A stretch of DNA of 43,404 bases, from positions 1 through 43,404 of the IMG/VR virus record IMGVR_UViG_3300030376_000853. One strand, written 5' to 3'. Position 1 is the stretch's first letter, and the number at the start of each line of letters is the position of its first letter. The position numbers were made by a program, and so were the translations under genes. The DNA is from a virus (lineage: Duplodnaviria > Caudoviricetes). Below, in pieces: positions 25,225 through 34,845 of this stretch. The notes under the pieces were generated by a model. The model worked only from the letters and a program-made list of their open reading frames with translations. It searched no databases and was not told the origin of the DNA.

Positions 25225-26340
25225 TTATAAAAACTTATACTGTCTCTTAAGAAAGTAAGAGTGAAGTTTATCACCTATAACTTTCTTAAATTCTTTACCT
25301 TTGTCTTCTCCTAAAAATCTATCTATATGTTTTTTACTCTTCTCTAACTCTATACCTTTTTCTATAATTGCATTTAGTATACGAACCCAGTTGCGTATCT
25401 TCGTAGGGTTAAGAGTTCCAGAGTGTAGTCTGAACTCTAAGCTACCGTGAAAATACCTAGAGTGTATATTAAGACCACAGTACCTAGCATCATTGTACTT
25501 GTCTACACTAGGTACAGAACCCATATACTCATAGTACTCTTCTACCAACATCTCTTCACTATTTATACTTAGCAGAGTATCTATACTCATTGGGAACTCT
25601 TTACACCACCTAGAGTCTTGCCTAGATGGAGGCATCATAGACTTTAGGTATGGCTCAAACTCTTTGTATACTATAGCTATATGAGCAACTTGTCTATAGT
25701 TTAAGTTAGTAGAGTCAAAGTGTACGTGTAGTCCACAACTAGAGTTTACTATTGCCTCGTGTTCTATTGCCCACTCTGAAAGGTCTCGTATCTGTTGATA
25801 TAGTATATCCCCACTTGAGGGAGAACTAACCATCTCTATACCTTCATAGTCGTCTATAGCATTTATAGAACCATCATAGGTATGAGCCCAGTTCTTAGGG
25901 TAGTACATACTATCTTGGATAGGGTACATACATTCAGCCTCTATACCTACTAACCTATTAACATTTAAATAGTCAAATGTTTCTGCTACTCTAGACCTAA
26001 TAGGAGGCTCTGCATTCTCTATTCTATCTATACACATAGATAGACGACAGGGTTCGCAACTATCACAGTATGGTTCTTCATTATGGTAGTATGTTTCATC
26101 TCTATGTATCTCAATCTCACAATCATAACAATAAGTATAATGTTCGCTGTAGCAATCATCACAGTAGTACATTCCACTTTCAGTAGTAGATACTTCTTCT
26201 AGTTGTATCTCATCTCCACAGCTCTCACAACTACAGTACTCTTCATAGTAACAATCATAACATAGATTATGATTTACAATAGAAGTTGTACTCTCTTCAC
26301 AGTTACTACAGACTAGTTCTTGCTCTCTATTTGTTTCCAT
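25225..26340 (-). CDS. Amidoligase (COOH-NH2 ligase, Amidoligase_2-like) with an N-terminal array of six CxxC
   Basis: VGIEAE, DGSI, EMVS, VNSSCGLHVH, RYCGLN, LEFR. Confidence 0.88.
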   Translation of the reverse strand: METNREQELVCSNCEESTTSIVNHNLCYDCYYEEYCSCESCGDEIQLEEVSTTESGMYYCDDCYSEHYTYCYDCEIEIHRDETYYHNEEPYCDSCEPCRLSMCIDRIENAEPPIRSRVAETFDYLNVNRLVGIEAECMYPIQDSMYYPKNWAHTYDGSINAIDDYEGIEMVSSPSSGDILYQQIRDLSEWAIEHEAIVNSSCGLHVHFDSTNLNYRQVAHIAIVYKEFEPYLKSMMPPSRQDSRWCKEFPMSIDTLLSINSEEMLVEEYYEYMGSVPSVDKYNDARYCGLNIHSRYFHGSLEFRLHSGTLNPTKIRNWVRILNAIIEKGIELEKSKKHIDRFLGEDKGKEFKKVIGDKLHSYFLKRQYKFL

Positions 26341-26341
26341 A

Positions 26342-26656
26342 CTACACTCCTATGTTAGTAGTAATAATCCCTAGTACGAAAGTGTTAATAACTTTAATCC
26401 AATCCATTTTCTTTAGAGCATCGAATATACGAGTCTCTATCTCTTCATCACTCTCTTCTATTTCTATATTACCTAGAGTAGAAATCTGCTCTTGCAAAAA
26501 TTCTAGATACTCTTCATAAGAGTGTTTATTTAGAAAAGGATTCTTTTTAGCTCTATCATATAAAGTCTCTATAATATATTTCTTAGACTTTAACTTGATA
26601 GGGTTGGGTAATCCTATAAGTATTACCTTCTTCTTAGAAGAGTACTTTGTCATCAT
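26342..26656 (-). CDS. Hypothetical protein inside the amidoligase operon
   Basis: AAGGAG RBS; 104 aa. Confidence 0.6.
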   Translation of the reverse strand: MMTKYSSKKKVILIGLPNPIKLKSKKYIIETLYDRAKKNPFLNKHSYEEYLEFLQEQISTLGNIEIEESDEEIETRIFDALKKMDWIKVINTFVLGIITTNIGV

Positions 26657-27638
26657 TGTTCTCCTTATCTGTTTTAGTATAGGTCGGGAATTCTATTGAA
26701 TACTCACAGTCTATACATATGTTCTCGTTAGCTATAGTTATAATCTCTTCATTGTCTACCCACTCATAACAGTAGTTACACATCAGTTCTTGACGACTTG
26801 GCATTAGAGACTTACTTGCTGGACTTGGGTTCATATCACAGGTAACGTAATTTGTAGAGCGACCACTCCATCCATAGCCACCATAGTAGTTAGTTATCTT
26901 GTTCCATTGACTTATAGTATGGAAAGATTCTTTCTCTACATTAGGTTTACTAGAGAAATTATCTGTGTCATACGTATGTATATAGTCTTCTACTACTTTA
27001 CTAGTAGGTAGCTTTAGACCTGCTTTAGTCATAGATACATCTAATATCTCTTTAGTAGATGCCCATAGAAGTATCCTAGCTTTCTTCCAATAGGCTATGT
27101 ACATAGGTCTACCAGACTCTCTAGCTAAGTGTATCTTCCTGTTACTGTCTTTTATCCAAGTTATAGCGAAGTCTCCGTCTATATCTTCGAATGCGTTCTT
27201 CATTTTGTTTCTATTAAGAGATGCGAAGATAACTTGAGAGTCTACCTCTACACTCTTTCCTAGAGACTTTGCAACCTTATTGTAGTTATGTATTATACCA
27301 TTGTGAGCACCTACTACATCACCTACAGTAAAAGGATGAGCGTTACGAGTCTTTACCACTCCGTGAGTAGCTAGTCTTACGTGACCTATAGCTATAGTAG
27401 TATCTACGTTGATACTATCTAGAAGTTCATCCCAATCTCCAGTAGTTACTAGAGTAGATGAATCAAGTAGAGTCTTGTATGTCTGTCTACTATTTGGTTG
27501 TATGATAGACATTCCTGTACTATCTGTACCTCTAATAGAGGACTCGTCTGCTAGTTCCGTTAGTACATCTTTCAACATCTCTAGTTGATTTTCTGTTTGA
27601 TGTCCGCTAGTCTTAGCGAACCCGAATATACCACACAT
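26634..27638 (-). CDS. Class II (Ntn) glutamine amidotransferase with a C-terminal Zn finger
   Basis: MCGIFG with catalytic Cys2, RG.DSTG, GHVRLAT, NAHPF, HNG, VDSQ; C-terminal CNYC...CIDC. Confidence 0.93.
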   Translation of the reverse strand: MCGIFGFAKTSGHQTENQLEMLKDVLTELADESSIRGTDSTGMSIIQPNSRQTYKTLLDSSTLVTTGDWDELLDSINVDTTIAIGHVRLATHGVVKTRNAHPFTVGDVVGAHNGIIHNYNKVAKSLGKSVEVDSQVIFASLNRNKMKNAFEDIDGDFAITWIKDSNRKIHLARESGRPMYIAYWKKARILLWASTKEILDVSMTKAGLKLPTSKVVEDYIHTYDTDNFSSKPNVEKESFHTISQWNKITNYYGGYGWSGRSTNYVTCDMNPSPASKSLMPSRQELMCNYCYEWVDNEEIITIANENICIDCEYSIEFPTYTKTDKENNDDKVLF

Positions 27639-27651
27639 ATATGTAGTCTCC

Positions 27652-29502
27652 TTATTTGTTTCTGTTTATTCTCTTCTCTATGTATGCTGTACTCTCTCTA
27701 CCACCAATACTATCTATAATATCCATAGCATTACTAGTCCTAGAAAGTACCTGTTGATACAATTTTTTATTTCTATGTAAATCTTTAGAGGTATCCATTA
27801 GTCTATTAAGGAACTTTATCCACTCTCTAATAGGTGGAGAGTAAATTTGTCCCTCGTGATACCTAAACTCTATAGTACCTAAGAAGAATCTAGCGTGTAG
27901 ATTTGTACCTATATATCTACCCTCGTTGTATCTTCCTACATTATATTTACTCAGTGTCATATTGTAGTACTTACTTACTAGAGTAGGTAAGTCTTCTATC
28001 TCTTCAATCATTGTAGGAGACATTGTTATTCTCCTAGCATAATTATTCTCTCTTCTGTCGCTAGGTAAGGATTCGTAGATAGTATCTTGTATAGAACTAG
28101 ACAACATTAGTAGGTTTTTAATCTCTCTAAATCCAAAGTCTATAGCATTCATATGTATATGTATACCACAACTTTTATCTACGTAATTGTCGTGTCTCCT
28201 GTGTGCTTTCTCTAAGTCTGATAAGGCAACAGATACTTCAGAGCCAACTAATGGTCTAGCTGTTCTGTACTCTACCCCACCTTCTGATAGAGAGCCATCA
28301 CCTACTACTTCAAATTGACTAGGTATACGTTCGCAATCTACATATTCTTCTTCGTCTGAGTACTGAGTAATAACCTCACTCTCTATACCAATATGTCTAG
28401 TATAAACCTTGTCCATATGTATTACATTAGGTAGAGACATACTTTTGTACGGACTATATAGTCTATGGTTTAAGTGTAGATTAGCACAATTACTACAGTA
28501 TCTATCTCCGTCTAAATCAAAATAGTCTCCAACAAACTTTTTTAGTGCACTAATCCTAGAAGAAAGTTTATCTATTGAATGTATATGGTCTAAGTCTACC
28601 TTGTCTATCTTTTTACACTTACTACATTCTTTATAGAGAAGAAGAGAGCAACTAGTATGTAAGAACTCTATACCCATATCTTTACAGATACCCTTAAATT
28701 TCTCTCTAAGTCTTTGTCTATGTGGAATATTAATAAAGGTATCAGTATCTAGGCAAACCCCACAGGGAACTTCTACTTCTCTAGTACAAGGCTCACATAT
28801 AAAGTTAATCCCAGCTACTCTACTCATACCTCTATGGTCTAATTTTCTACAGTAATGACATCTAGTATAAGGTATACTAACTTTTCTTACAGAGTTGTAG
28901 GACATAGATAGAACTTTCTGTACTCTTATATCTAGGTAGAATCTATTAGGATAAGATACTCTACTATCAAATCTATCTACAAACTTATTCTCTTTCCAAA
29001 GTTTATGTACATTAATCCAAGAGGTATAGTTAGAACTATACCTAGATTGTTCTCTACTATCTATGTACTCTTCTGTTATGTAGTACGAAGCATTATCTCT
29101 ATGTATTAAATCCGTCTCTACATTCCAAGGATGTGTTATCATTGTAGAATGATTACCATAGCCTATAATAGTAGGCAGCTCATCTCTGTAATGTTTACTA
29201 CAGAATAGTATATCTCTAACTCTAGCTACTACAGTTACATCATTATAGATACCTTCAAGTACTACATTAGGCTTTCTCTCTACGTCATTAGTAGTCTCTT
29301 CACTTACATCTACATCTAATACATCTACTAGTCTGAACAGCCTAGATTTTATAGTAGGTAGAAAATTAAAGTGGCGAACACTATCTATCATTGTTTCATC
29401 TATTAGAATATCATCTACAGAATCACTAGTAAATCTATAACCTTTCTCTACTACTCTAGTATGACTATAGTTAGTTAAGTAGACTTCATTTGAATAGAAC
29501 AT
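27652..29502 (-). CDS. Second amidoligase (Amidoligase_2-like) with a long N-terminal region and CxxC array
   Basis: IGIESE, DGSL, VEY, VDKSCGIHIH, RY..NL, IEFR; CHYC, CEPC, CGVC, HTSC, CSKC, CSNC. Confidence 0.85.
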   Translation of the reverse strand: MFYSNEVYLTNYSHTRVVEKGYRFTSDSVDDILIDETMIDSVRHFNFLPTIKSRLFRLVDVLDVDVSEETTNDVERKPNVVLEGIYNDVTVVARVRDILFCSKHYRDELPTIIGYGNHSTMITHPWNVETDLIHRDNASYYITEEYIDSREQSRYSSNYTSWINVHKLWKENKFVDRFDSRVSYPNRFYLDIRVQKVLSMSYNSVRKVSIPYTRCHYCRKLDHRGMSRVAGINFICEPCTREVEVPCGVCLDTDTFINIPHRQRLREKFKGICKDMGIEFLHTSCSLLLYKECSKCKKIDKVDLDHIHSIDKLSSRISALKKFVGDYFDLDGDRYCSNCANLHLNHRLYSPYKSMSLPNVIHMDKVYTRHIGIESEVITQYSDEEEYVDCERIPSQFEVVGDGSLSEGGVEYRTARPLVGSEVSVALSDLEKAHRRHDNYVDKSCGIHIHMNAIDFGFREIKNLLMLSSSIQDTIYESLPSDRRENNYARRITMSPTMIEEIEDLPTLVSKYYNMTLSKYNVGRYNEGRYIGTNLHARFFLGTIEFRYHEGQIYSPPIREWIKFLNRLMDTSKDLHRNKKLYQQVLSRTSNAMDIIDSIGGRESTAYIEKRINRNK

Positions 29503-29632
29503 CTCTAGCCTCCCTGATTATACATAGAATATAATCTTTGTAGAGTACAACAAATCCACTAGACAATATAGTCAGTAGACTGAAGTGATGCTCTCCACAA
29601 GAGCCTAGTAGATGATGTATTATCTCTCTCAT
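29486..29632 (-). CDS. 48-aa His/Cys plus hydrophobic peptide (not in the ORF track)
   Basis: GAGG RBS; MREIIHHLLGSCGEHHFSLLTILSSGFVVLYKDYILCIIREARDVLFK. Confidence 0.6.
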   Translation of the reverse strand: MREIIHHLLGSCGEHHFSLLTILSSGFVVLYKDYILCIIREARDVLFK

Positions 29633-29699
29633 AATAACCTCTCTATTAGTTTTTTTCTCTACGACAAAATACTAATATATCGTACTTTGGCGTACCATT

Positions 29700-29728
29700 A
29701 ACTTACTAAATAATAGGGACAATGTCAA
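29700..29728 (-). promoter_or_regulatory. Sigma70-type promoter for the amidoligase operon
   Basis: TTGACA-N17-TAAGTT. Confidence 0.7.
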
Positions 29729-31023: not shown

Positions 31024-31062
31024 TCTCTAACCTCTTGTTATTTGTTAATAAATTCATATCGG

Positions 31063-31092
31063 ATTATATATATAAATATGCATATGAGTCAA
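31063..31092 (-). promoter_or_regulatory. Sigma70-type early promoter
   Basis: TTGACT-N18-TATAAT. Confidence 0.6.
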
Positions 31093-31336
31093 GAAAATAA
31101 TAATAAATTAACATATGTTAATTAATTCAAAATGTATAAAAAAACATTAGGATTATTAAGAAAAAATTTGTATGAGTTAAATTTGAAGTTGAAGAAAATT
31201 TCGCATAATATATATTATGTATAATTGAAATGATGCAATTTAAAACAACCTAGAAATTAATACCTTTTAAGTTAATATCCTAGAATTATTTTTTTGAGCG
31301 TTATGAGCGTTTGGTTTTTAAAATATTGAGTTTAGT

Positions 31337-31421
31337 TTTCGAATACTAGTTCGAACTTTCGAATCATAATTCGAATTTTCAACTAACGAGTCGAATTTCA
31401 AACAGGATTAGGGGGCGGGGG
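31337..31421. repeat. Degenerate 20-bp tandem repeats of TTCGAA palindromes followed by GGGGGCGGGGG
   Basis: TTCGAA at 31338, 31350, 31358, 31370; variants at 31378, 31390, 31397; inside an AT-rich non-coding region of about 450 bp. Confidence 0.75.
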
Positions 31422-31482
31422 TAATACGCAAAGAAGACTCACACACAATTTTTGTATATTTTTTTAGAACATAGGTGGGTAA

Positions 31483-32182: not shown

Positions 32183-32308
32183 TTATTCTACTCTTGTCTC
32201 CTTTGCCATTCATCTGATTTCCTTTTTCTTTCTTTATATATACGTTAGTATATATATTTCTTTCTTTATTTAGTTAAGTAGTTAGTTTCTTGGCTTAGTT
32301 CGCCTAAT

Positions 32309-32337
32309 AATTTAATAAGAAAAAACAAATTTTACAA
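32309..32337 (-). promoter_or_regulatory. Leftward promoter of a divergent pair
   Basis: TTGTAA-N17-TAAATT. Confidence 0.55.
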
Positions 32338-32373
32338 GTACTTTATTAATATTAATATAAAATAAAATAATAC

Positions 32374-32403
32374 TTGCATATATATATAGTTTATTTATAT
32401 ATT
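32374..32403 (+). promoter_or_regulatory. Rightward promoter of the packaging operon
   Basis: TTGCAT-N18-TATATT; only 12 nt before ATG 32416 and no SD, so the mRNA may be near-leaderless. Confidence 0.5.
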
Positions 32404-32415
32404 AATACATAGATT

Positions 32416-32649: not shown

Positions 32650-32756
32650 TGAGAGTATTTACTGCATTAGGAATAATGTTTTTAAATTTTTATTTTGTAA
32701 TAGAAGCACTTGTGCTAGCAATAATAATTAAAGCGATAATGGGGTTTTATAAATGA
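32649..32756 (+). CDS. 35-aa hydrophobic peptide (not in the ORF track)
   Basis: MRVFTALGIMFLNFYFVIEALVLAIIIKAIMGFYK; TAATG and ATGA couplings on both sides. Confidence 0.55.
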   Translation: MRVFTALGIMFLNFYFVIEALVLAIIIKAIMGFYK

Positions 32757-33514
32757 AAAGAGCTATAGTAACACCAGATAAGCATTTTCCCTTTGAGGAT
32801 AAACCAGCTATAAAGGTTTTATGTAAGGCTATCGAGTTAGTAAAGCCAGATATATATATTGACCTAGGAGATACAGGAGAGTGGGAATCTGTTTCTCATT
32901 GGCAATGGAAGAAAAAGAAAAGACCACCATTAGAATATCAACTACCTTTTGTTGTAAAGGAGATAGAAGCTGTAAATAAAGGTATGGATGTAATTGATAA
33001 GTCTTTGGATAAGGCAGGGACAAAGGAGAGGCACTTCATTGAAGGTAATCACGAAGACTGGCTTAATAGATTTTGCGAAGAAAACCCATACCTATCTAAG
33101 CAAATGCTTGTCCCAAATGCTCTTAAACTTAAAGAGAGAGGATATAAATATCATAGAATTGGAAAGATGCTTAAAATCGGAAAGCTCAACTTTTATCACG
33201 GACATCATTTCGCTGGTGTTCATCATACTCGTAATCATCTCATACGTCTCGGTGGCAATGTCATGTATGGACATCATCACGACATACAACAATCTAGTGT
33301 CACTCATATAGACGGTGTAAAGTCTGCTTGGTCTATAGGTTGTTTAAAAGATATGAGTGCAGAGGCAAACGAGTGGTTAGGAAACAGGCAACACAATTGG
33401 CAACACGCTTTTGCTATTGTTGATTTTCATCCTAATAAAAACTTCAACGTTACAGTTCATCAGATTGTAAATGGAGTAAGTACTGTAGATGGTAAGGTAC
33501 TTAAGGCAAAGTGA
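32753..33514 (+). CDS. Calcineurin-like metallophosphoesterase
   Basis: PDKH, LGD, GNHE, HGH, GHHH motifs. Confidence 0.9.
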   Translation: MKRAIVTPDKHFPFEDKPAIKVLCKAIELVKPDIYIDLGDTGEWESVSHWQWKKKKRPPLEYQLPFVVKEIEAVNKGMDVIDKSLDKAGTKERHFIEGNHEDWLNRFCEENPYLSKQMLVPNALKLKERGYKYHRIGKMLKIGKLNFYHGHHFAGVHHTRNHLIRLGGNVMYGHHHDIQQSSVTHIDGVKSAWSIGCLKDMSAEANEWLGNRQHNWQHAFAIVDFHPNKNFNVTVHQIVNGVSTVDGKVLKAK

Positions 33515-34272: not shown

Positions 34273-34481
34273 ACCTATATGAAGTATGCATACAGGTGTT
34301 AGAACAAGCCGGTGAAAATGACAATGACTTAAAAGACAGTATGTCAAGAGAATATATAGCTAATGAGATATATGAGCTGTTTTATGAGTATCAAGTGTAT
34401 AGTGAAAAGTTTGATACTGGATATATAGAAGACGTAAAAGACTTTTGGGACTACAAGAACAGGTTTAATGAAGACAGATAA
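34269..34481 (+). CDS. Acidic hypothetical protein
   Basis: ATGA coupling; 70 aa. Confidence 0.6.
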   Translation: MNLYEVCIQVLEQAGENDNDLKDSMSREYIANEIYELFYEYQVYSEKFDTGYIEDVKDFWDYKNRFNEDR

Positions 34482-34845
34482 GTTAGCAGTATACGGAACT
34501 CTTCGTAATGGAAAGAGGGAGACGTGGAAGGTAGATGGATTTAACTTGTACTTTCCCGGTCATAGAAATTATCCTGTTGCAATGCCAAATGAAGACGCTA
34601 GTAACTTAGTTGTAGAGGTTATAGACGTAGATGAGCAAGACATAGATAATTATGATGTATACGAAGGAGTTGACTCTGGATTATATGAAAGAAGACTTGT
34701 TAAGGCTTATAGAGGTGATAAGAAGGTAGAAGCTTGGATGTATACTATAGGAACATTACTACTTCAAAGTACTGGAGTGTTTCAAGAAGTTCCGGGCAAA
34801 GACTGGTACTCAGATAAATGTCAGAAGCTAATACATTTAACATAA
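34468..34845 (+). CDS. Gamma-glutamylcyclotransferase (GGCT/AIG2-like)
   Basis: AVYGTLR, D.YEG with catalytic Glu, LYER, AWMY. Confidence 0.88.
   Translation: MKTDKLAVYGTLRNGKRETWKVDGFNLYFPGHRNYPVAMPNEDASNLVVEVIDVDEQDIDNYDVYEGVDSGLYERRLVKAYRGDKKVEAWMYTIGTLLLQSTGVFQEVPGKDWYSDKCQKLIHLT

Follow-up and report, generated by a model that had tools for sequence, protein, structure and literature searches.

The locus described here raises the question of which chemistry two related amidoligases, encoded on either side of a class-II glutamine amidotransferase (GATase)-like hydrolase, would perform for a phage, and on which target. The window, that is, the whole IMG/VR record of 43,404 bases (96% complete according to CheckV; GC 33.9%), also encodes a P22-like portal, an SU10-type capsid, terminases and a DnaB helicase, as found by Pfam and PHROG scans. 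Its terminase shares at most 27% identity with GenBank phages among the 296 records matched, there is no close cultured relative, and the Tara labels among its homologues, the sole hint of a habitat, would suggest a marine one.

Layout and conservation of the cassette

A preliminary description of this DNA listed five genes behind one promoter, and all five were recovered on the minus strand at the positions and with the sizes and order that it gave; its coordinates left out the cyclotransferase gene at 34468-34845, and the significance of the 104-aa ORF was also missed. The features are as follows:

29700..29728, minus strand: candidate sigma70-like promoter TTGACA-N17-TAAGTT, predicted by sequence match
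29486..29632, minus strand: 48-aa peptide with an HHxxGxCGExH motif and a hydrophobic stretch
27652..29502, minus strand: long Amidoligase_2 paralogue, 616 aa, with a variable N-terminal domain of ~205 aa, three inferred zinc fingers and an intact catalytic domain
26634..27638, minus strand: class-II (Ntn) GATase-like hydrolase, 334 aa, GlmS-like, starting M-C, with a C-terminal four-cysteine finger
26342..26656, minus strand: 104-aa ORF, belonging to a small, unannotated protein family whose genes adjoin those of Amidoligase_2 ligases
25225..26340, minus strand: short Amidoligase_2 paralogue, 371 aa, with six CxxC pairs followed by a predicted glutamine-synthetase-fold domain; core gene
34468..34845, plus strand: gamma-glutamyl cyclotransferase (GGCT; GGACT/AIG2-like), PF06094 E 2.1e-12, between the small and large terminase genes

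The cassette takes up 10.2% of the record, close to the tenth estimated before, and the 48-aa ORF overlaps the start of the long ligase by 17 nt. The genes are tightly coupled, as expected of the proposed operon, but no end is visible at 25225: the next ORF begins 22 nt further, no minus-strand terminator is listed between 21463 and 34066, and the transcription unit may run past this point. The early timing ascribed to the cassette would follow from its position only. The promoter claim held in part. The sequence is present at 29728-29700, and a similar site lies 95-107 nt 5' of the 48-aa ORF in 13 of 37 distinct upstream regions (window counted), none being found at that distance in the other 24; as a pattern, however, it is weak, with 2 matches in the window against 0.85 expected and at least 2 in 23 of 100 shuffles. 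A phage-specific promoter family was looked for and not established, and there was no Rfam match.

The 48-aa peptide has no match in Pfam, PHROG or NCBIfam. Its gene shows zero synonymous changes in three of four close pairs, in which the neighbouring genes have dS of 0.15-0.48, and distant copies do differ at third positions; either recent exchange or an overlapping nucleotide-level signal could account for this lack of synonymous change. Between the divergent arms of the genome lie long AT-rich non-coding stretches with short palindromes (31024-31482 and 32214-32415 of the window), a possible origin, packaging or control region. The small terminase gene is preceded by a metallophosphoesterase gene (32753-33514, plus strand) that is highly conserved in close relatives and absent from distant ones.

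Conservation was assessed in a backbone-anchored set, searched with the downstream exonuclease independently of the cassette (80 loci kept of 160 found), and in a ligase-anchored set (80 loci kept of 436). In the former, the GATase and a ligase occur together in 52/52 loci having at least 7 kb upstream (not dereplicated), in line with the anticipated co-occurrence of these genes. Thirty of these loci have the order ligase-GATase-104-ligase, two GATase-104-ligase and 20 GATase-ligase, the last group lacking the 104-aa gene and having a longer ligase. Since 22 of the 52 thus carry a single ligase, an obligate two-ligase pathway is rejected, and the obligatory two-step or heteromeric ligase pair once proposed is unlikely. 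In the ligase-anchored set, 15 loci that extend about 8 kb beyond the GATase on its upstream side lack the long ligase. The 104-aa gene separates GATase and ligase in 73 of 75 further loci, the remaining two being cut by a contig end. The GATase-ligase pair is the core of this phage family and the long ligase is optional. As the module is kept by every examined member of the family, it appears to matter for infection. A pyrimidine-dimer glycosylase-like gene (PF03013) often lies just 5' of the GATase or of the 48-aa gene in relatives (L043:7974-8390, others).

The GGCT gene, 6.8 kb from the GATase and on the opposite strand, is found in 35 of 40 chosen relatives, including 19/19 near-complete ones; the five without it are all <80% complete, and one of them is an unrelated phage. 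Within this one lineage both GGCT and the cassette belong to the core, so that finding them together is no independent sign of a joint function.

The ligases and their putative amide-cleaving companions

Both ligases pass the Pfam model Amidoligase_2 (PF12224) with E-values of 1.2e-19 and 1.3e-21 (71.6 and 78 bits against a cut-off of 22), and both carry the ExE, DGS, CGxHxH, RY..N and EFR motifs noted previously. These are invariant or nearly so among relatives, with catalytic residues retained in 40/40 representatives of the short ligase and 31-32 of 32 of the long one. An AlphaFold prediction for the short ligase (pLDDT 92.9) confirms the glutamine-synthetase fold at model level: among 48,161 chains, 19 reach Z of at least 8, every one from the glutamine-synthetase superfamily, and the Foldseek result is consistent with this. 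The best structural matches of the model, YbdK (Z 13.2) and plant glutamate-cysteine ligase (12.4), are gamma-glutamyl-activating enzymes, followed by glutamine synthetases (11.7), Dop (9.7) and PafA (9.4). The long ligase is tied to this fold through 27% identity with the short one over 216 aa.

In a FastTree phylogeny of 142 catalytic domains, long and short ligases fall into one clade (support 0.96), within which each paralogue alone is weakly supported (0.70 and 0.13). Pairwise identities of the two paralogues correlate over 40 genomes (Spearman 0.89), and the paralogues share 27-41% identity within a genome; taken together, this indicates that the duplication is old and that both copies were inherited together.

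The six CxxC pairs of the short ligase are weakly LIM-like (E 1.8e-5), and the long ligase has five CxxC pairs and one HxxC half-site following its variable domain, for which there was no PDB sequence match and only Atlas matches under 0.9. Our impression is that this domain may be SH3/KOW-like. Upstream ligases of several loci (L039, L042, L045, L063, L073) start with a GD(K/T)(V/I)-type motif, which we take to resemble SH3/KOW barrels, and those of two others (L041, L047) are devoid of the N-terminal domain altogether. Within the ligases, conservation is lowest in the finger arrays and the N-terminal domain. Across four pairs, dN/dS is 0.23-0.58 for the long and 0.28-0.46 for the short ligase, compared with 0.14-0.21 for the GATase and 0.10-0.32 for the 104-aa gene, and across three pairs 0.05-0.14 for the exonuclease and 0.13-0.21 for a recombinase-like gene. 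The faster change of the ligases, with the arms least conserved, would fit target recognition, and as their dN/dS stays below 1 it may reflect relaxed selection rather than an arms race.

The GATase passes GATase_6 (E 8.4e-18), and the intact Cys2 reported earlier is present. It possesses the N-terminal Cys nucleophile and the Arg, Thr, Asn-Gly and Asp glutamine-site residues of class-II enzymes, with C2, R36, R88, T91, N113, G114, D133, C287, C290, C308 and C311 invariant in 33/33 aligned sequences. Its closest likeness is to GlmS (E 1.2e-20); the gamma-glutamyl hydrolase EgtC matches less well (7.6e-6), so that the role of an ammonia donor is favoured. The reading as a glutamine-dependent amidotransferase draws on exactly this GlmS likeness: the GATase would free ammonia, each ligase would use it to amidate a carboxylate (a change of -0.984 Da) carried by a protein, a peptide or a metabolite, and the 104-aa protein would act as a GatC-like bridge. 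The invariance of all glutamine-binding residues and the adjacency of GATase and ligase in every one of the 52 loci suit it, as does the placement of the small gene between ligase and GATase in the window and in L406 and L407. Such amidation leaves the universal GGCT unexplained, however, and we regard it as the nearest competitor of the reading preferred below, though on the unlikely side.

The GGCT carries an AVYGTLR motif and E66, which we take to be the catalytic-position glutamate, both invariant in 22/22 aligned sequences. GGCT chemistry requires a gamma-linked glutamyl group with a free alpha-amine, which suits glutamylation, and both GATase and GGCT types are able to break gamma-glutamyl amides. 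Different loci combine these genes differently: ligase and GATase in Omnitrophota elements; ligase and GGCT, with no GATase detected, in L125, L136, L143, L151, L402 and Bacillus phages. Kovu, LUZ24 and the family of the window have all three genes. The same alternation of GATase and GGCT beside the ligase is reportedly mentioned in the Pfam description. With a constant ligase and alternating neighbours that both cleave gamma-glutamyl amides, glutamylation with erasers is favoured over ammonia-dependent amidation.

The reading we prefer, with a probability of roughly 40%, is that a ligase and its partner write gamma-glutamyl amides onto a variable target, from which the GATase and GGCT remove them. 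The short ligase would use ATP to activate the gamma-carboxyl of glutamate as an acyl-phosphate and couple it to an amine, which would most likely sit on a host protein chosen by the zinc-finger arm. The 104-aa protein would be a non-covalent subunit or adaptor of the short ligase, and the long ligase an old accessory duplicate serving a second target via its own N-terminal domain. The Ntn hydrolase and the GGCT would cleave the gamma-glutamyl amides, the GGCT of the packaging operon acting later in infection. Against this glutamylation, a remover co-transcribed with its writer would constitute a futile cycle unless regulated.

A small protein family encoded beside amidoligases

The 104-aa ORF proved to have relatives well beyond this phage family. 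Among GTDB loci (80 kept of 93), 66 hold distant ligases without a detected GATase, and in most of these the ligase is followed by an unannotated ORF of 75-80 aa. A profile of these ORFs matches the 104-aa family with an HHalign probability of 93.6%, against at most 1.6% for five control families, and of 95.6% once five rows were dropped. The 104-aa and ~77-aa sets align end to end, and in phage loci the small-ORF profile matches 104-aa genes only (best E 7.7e-8). The small gene immediately follows the ligase in 49 of the 66 bacterial loci. Twenty-two of these also built the profile, 5 loci lie at contig ends, 12 scored none and several are near-identical Bacteroides copies. Since the partner is also encoded beside ligases with no detected GATase, it is not a dedicated ligase-GATase bridge, which speaks against the amidation scheme.

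Searches that started from the small protein alone found an amidoligase directly upstream in 4/4 phage records and 1/1 plasmid. A second reverse test, on two samples totalling 401 genomes, gave five new matches. Three of these immediately follow a ligase, two lying between it and a GATase and one having a GGCT next in line; the fourth (L403) shows no ligase in the 1.5 kb preceding it, and the fifth, a weak match, falls within a membrane protein. Bacillus phage proteins 031MP004 gp41 (E 4e-5) and PBC5 gp38 (E 0.03) are distant members, behind amidoligases. The family comprises 1,247 clusters at 50% identity; the ten that were looked up bear the sole name 'hypothetical protein', and there is no Pfam entry. 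The partner was detected neither in any of the 14 loci L081-L094 nor in the one-ligase GATase-ligase phage loci, and LUZ24, Kovu, a Vibrio phage and a spring phage likewise showed none next to their ligases; it is therefore not universally required.

Side by side with these counts, several variants of the arrangement were seen. In two loci (L406:1453-1953, L407:745-1272) the gene between ligase and GATase encodes a fusion, in which the partner domain is followed by a C-terminal one presumably resembling DUF5049. In one-ligase loci (e.g. L078:9830-11587), ligases without the 104-aa gene bear a conserved C-terminal extension of ~200 aa with no Pfam match, which perhaps replaces the partner. A 104-aa domain fused to a ligase was sought and not found, this extension being non-homologous (HHalign 1.4%).

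Across 53 aligned rows of the partner family no column is invariant, and the C-terminal ends vary; this would fit a structural subunit more readily than a carrier that is itself modified. The model of the 104-aa protein (pLDDT 71.5) had no Foldseek or Atlas match, and neither branch of the family has a Pfam or PDB match above chance; the likeness to a winged helix (MecI, E 0.03) is no more than a lead. Complex prediction for residues 100-371 of the short ligase with the 104-aa protein scored 0.00 against a mark of 0.32, giving no answer either way. Judged from gene neighbourhoods, the 104-aa protein is likely a ligase partner, the linkage speaking for association and not for binding as such. 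This unannotated partner family, with its profile-based kinship to ligase neighbours across bacteria and phages, is the new element described here; if such a small partner is what has been missing, it would show the way to reconstituting the enzyme.

The pairing is also reminiscent of a toxin-antitoxin system, with the ligase as a growth-arresting modifier and the small protein as its inhibitor: on prophages and integrative elements the ligase is immediately followed by a small acidic ORF. In the window, however, a single small gene is shared by the two ligases and lies ahead of the short one, and many ligases lack the small gene; we consider such a system improbable. The charge of the partner bears on another idea, modification of phage DNA or of a nucleotide to resist host nucleases. 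LIM-like zinc fingers and a basic partner (median pI 9.4 in the family of the window) could bind DNA, Omnitrophota elements carry the ligase-GATase pair behind a RadC-like gene, and passages of PMC8989533 describe viral contigs in which thymidine-hypermodification genes have genes for amidoligases and amidotransferases as neighbours. Against it, bacterial partners are acidic (median pI 4.6), and among the 48 window ORFs covered by the general Pfam/PHROG scan, which some small ORFs fall outside, there is no DNA polymerase, hydroxymethylase, TET/JBP, 5-HMU kinase/transferase or other base-modifying gene. A role in DNA modification has, in our estimate, a slim chance.

It is tempting to extend the favoured glutamylation to phage and mobile-element Amidoligase_2 proteins at large, although in this broad form it is distinctly speculative and rather unlikely. 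They would be writers of an undescribed, reversible gamma-glutamylation of proteins; the ~77-104-aa family would be their dedicated activating or targeting subunit, zinc-finger arms would be swappable and pick host proteins, and GATase-like proteins and GGCTs would be erasers. In the present phage the writer would have been duplicated for two targets early in infection and the mark erased at packaging.

Comparison with known systems

Iyer et al. are said to have predicted the ligase-GATase gene pair in 2009. Phages and mobile elements commonly carry amidoligase, GATase and GGCT genes, and the superinfection-exclusion or metabolic label usually given to them rests on one prediction. Modification of the envelope or a receptor for superinfection exclusion, as suggested for phiEco32, appears as a suggestion in passages of PMC10580990 and PMC11706807, and the hydrophobic stretch of the 48-aa peptide ahead of the cassette would agree with it. 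The suggestion nevertheless goes back to that single 2009 prediction, no ATP-grasp gene was found in the window, and the zinc-finger arms would rather point to a cytoplasmic macromolecule, so that we give it little credence. Host takeover, superinfection exclusion and anti-defence, the purposes offered in the preliminary description, are guesses. Its interpretation is partly supported overall: family assignments, fold and co-occurrence hold at the level of sequences and models, which answers two of the three grounds for refutation that it named.

The open literature, covered by titles, abstract openings and passages with subscription papers outside the scope, yielded no assay of any PF12224 enzyme and, with PMC10945688, PMC6209634, PMC3517423 and bioRxiv 10.1101/2024.05.16.594516 and 10.1101/2025.10.03.680091 among the passages, no description of the partner. 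A search for 'amidoligase' with anti-defence found no paper, and a Klebsiella fimbria preprint concerns an ATP-grasp protein.

The phiEco32/LUZ24-type cluster comprises gp16-gp22 in LUZ24 and ORF21-29 in UFV-P2; that of LUZ24 contains two ligases, a GATase, an ATP-grasp gene and a GGCT (PMC3890496, passages). With this phiEco32-type arrangement the window shares two glutamine-synthetase-fold ligases, a class-II GATase, a GGCT and the devotion of about a tenth of the genome; two ligases and a 10% share are thus no distinguishing mark, LUZ24 having two ligases and 12.5%. In LUZ24, however, a PF14395 (type-2) ligase is combined with a PF12224 one, neither having CxxC pairs, the GGCT lies inside the cluster and no partner is detected, whereas the window has two PF12224 paralogues with zinc fingers, its GGCT in the packaging operon, and no ATP-grasp or PF14395 match. 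PF14395 was looked for by tblastn of LUZ24 gp16, with no match, and by a family search that was also blank, as were its controls. The noted lack of an ATP-grasp gene was borne out by RimK and YheCD models, negative where controls matched (RimK 0/5 in complete relatives), and by LUZ24 gp21, which gave no match and is itself without a Pfam match, in a record 96% complete. The cassette belongs to the Amidoligase_2/GATase-II modules, not to the full phiEco32/LUZ24 cluster.

A ligase adjoining a GATase is shared with OM43 phages and Poseidoniales viruses, where its function is left open in the passages of PMC10580990 and PMC11706807, and with Arthrobacter phage Kovu and Omnitrophota conjugative elements; a prophage table (PMC11318856, in part) lists two amidoligase ORFs and a GGCT. 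The OM43, Poseidoniales, Kovu and Omnitrophota loci examined differ in having a single ligase, and in Kovu and Omnitrophota the partner is not detected. Kovu also has a GGCT, in the order GGCT-amidoligase-GATase, and no ATP-grasp is annotated in the stretch shown, so the missing ATP-grasp gene does not set the window apart. On the Omnitrophota elements (MAG loci L082-L094), zinc-finger ligase and GATase follow coupling protein, PC4-like and RadC-like genes, beside DUF6573; in L094, patatin and cGAS-like genes lie 2 kb further on.

Mechanisms that pair a ligase with an amide-cleaving partner are known from EgtA/EgtC, PafA/Dop and GatCAB. The cassette resembles them in combining a glutamine-synthetase-fold ligase with a putative amide-cleaving companion, PafA and Dop being among its structural matches, and differs in that no other ergothioneine genes were found and the sequences lie far below the family cut-offs. 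A Pup-like terminal Glu/Gln is absent from both small ORFs, as the 104-aa family ends variably and the 48-aa peptide ends LFK.

The modules of Bacillus phages 031MP004 and PBC5 and of Firmicutes prophages share with the window a ligase, a 104-aa homologue directly behind it and a GGCT nearby, and differ from it in a shorter ligase, no duplication and no GATase in the stretches shown. The gp40/gp41/gp44 set of Bacillus subtilis phage 031MP004 thereby provides a cultured counterpart of the system.
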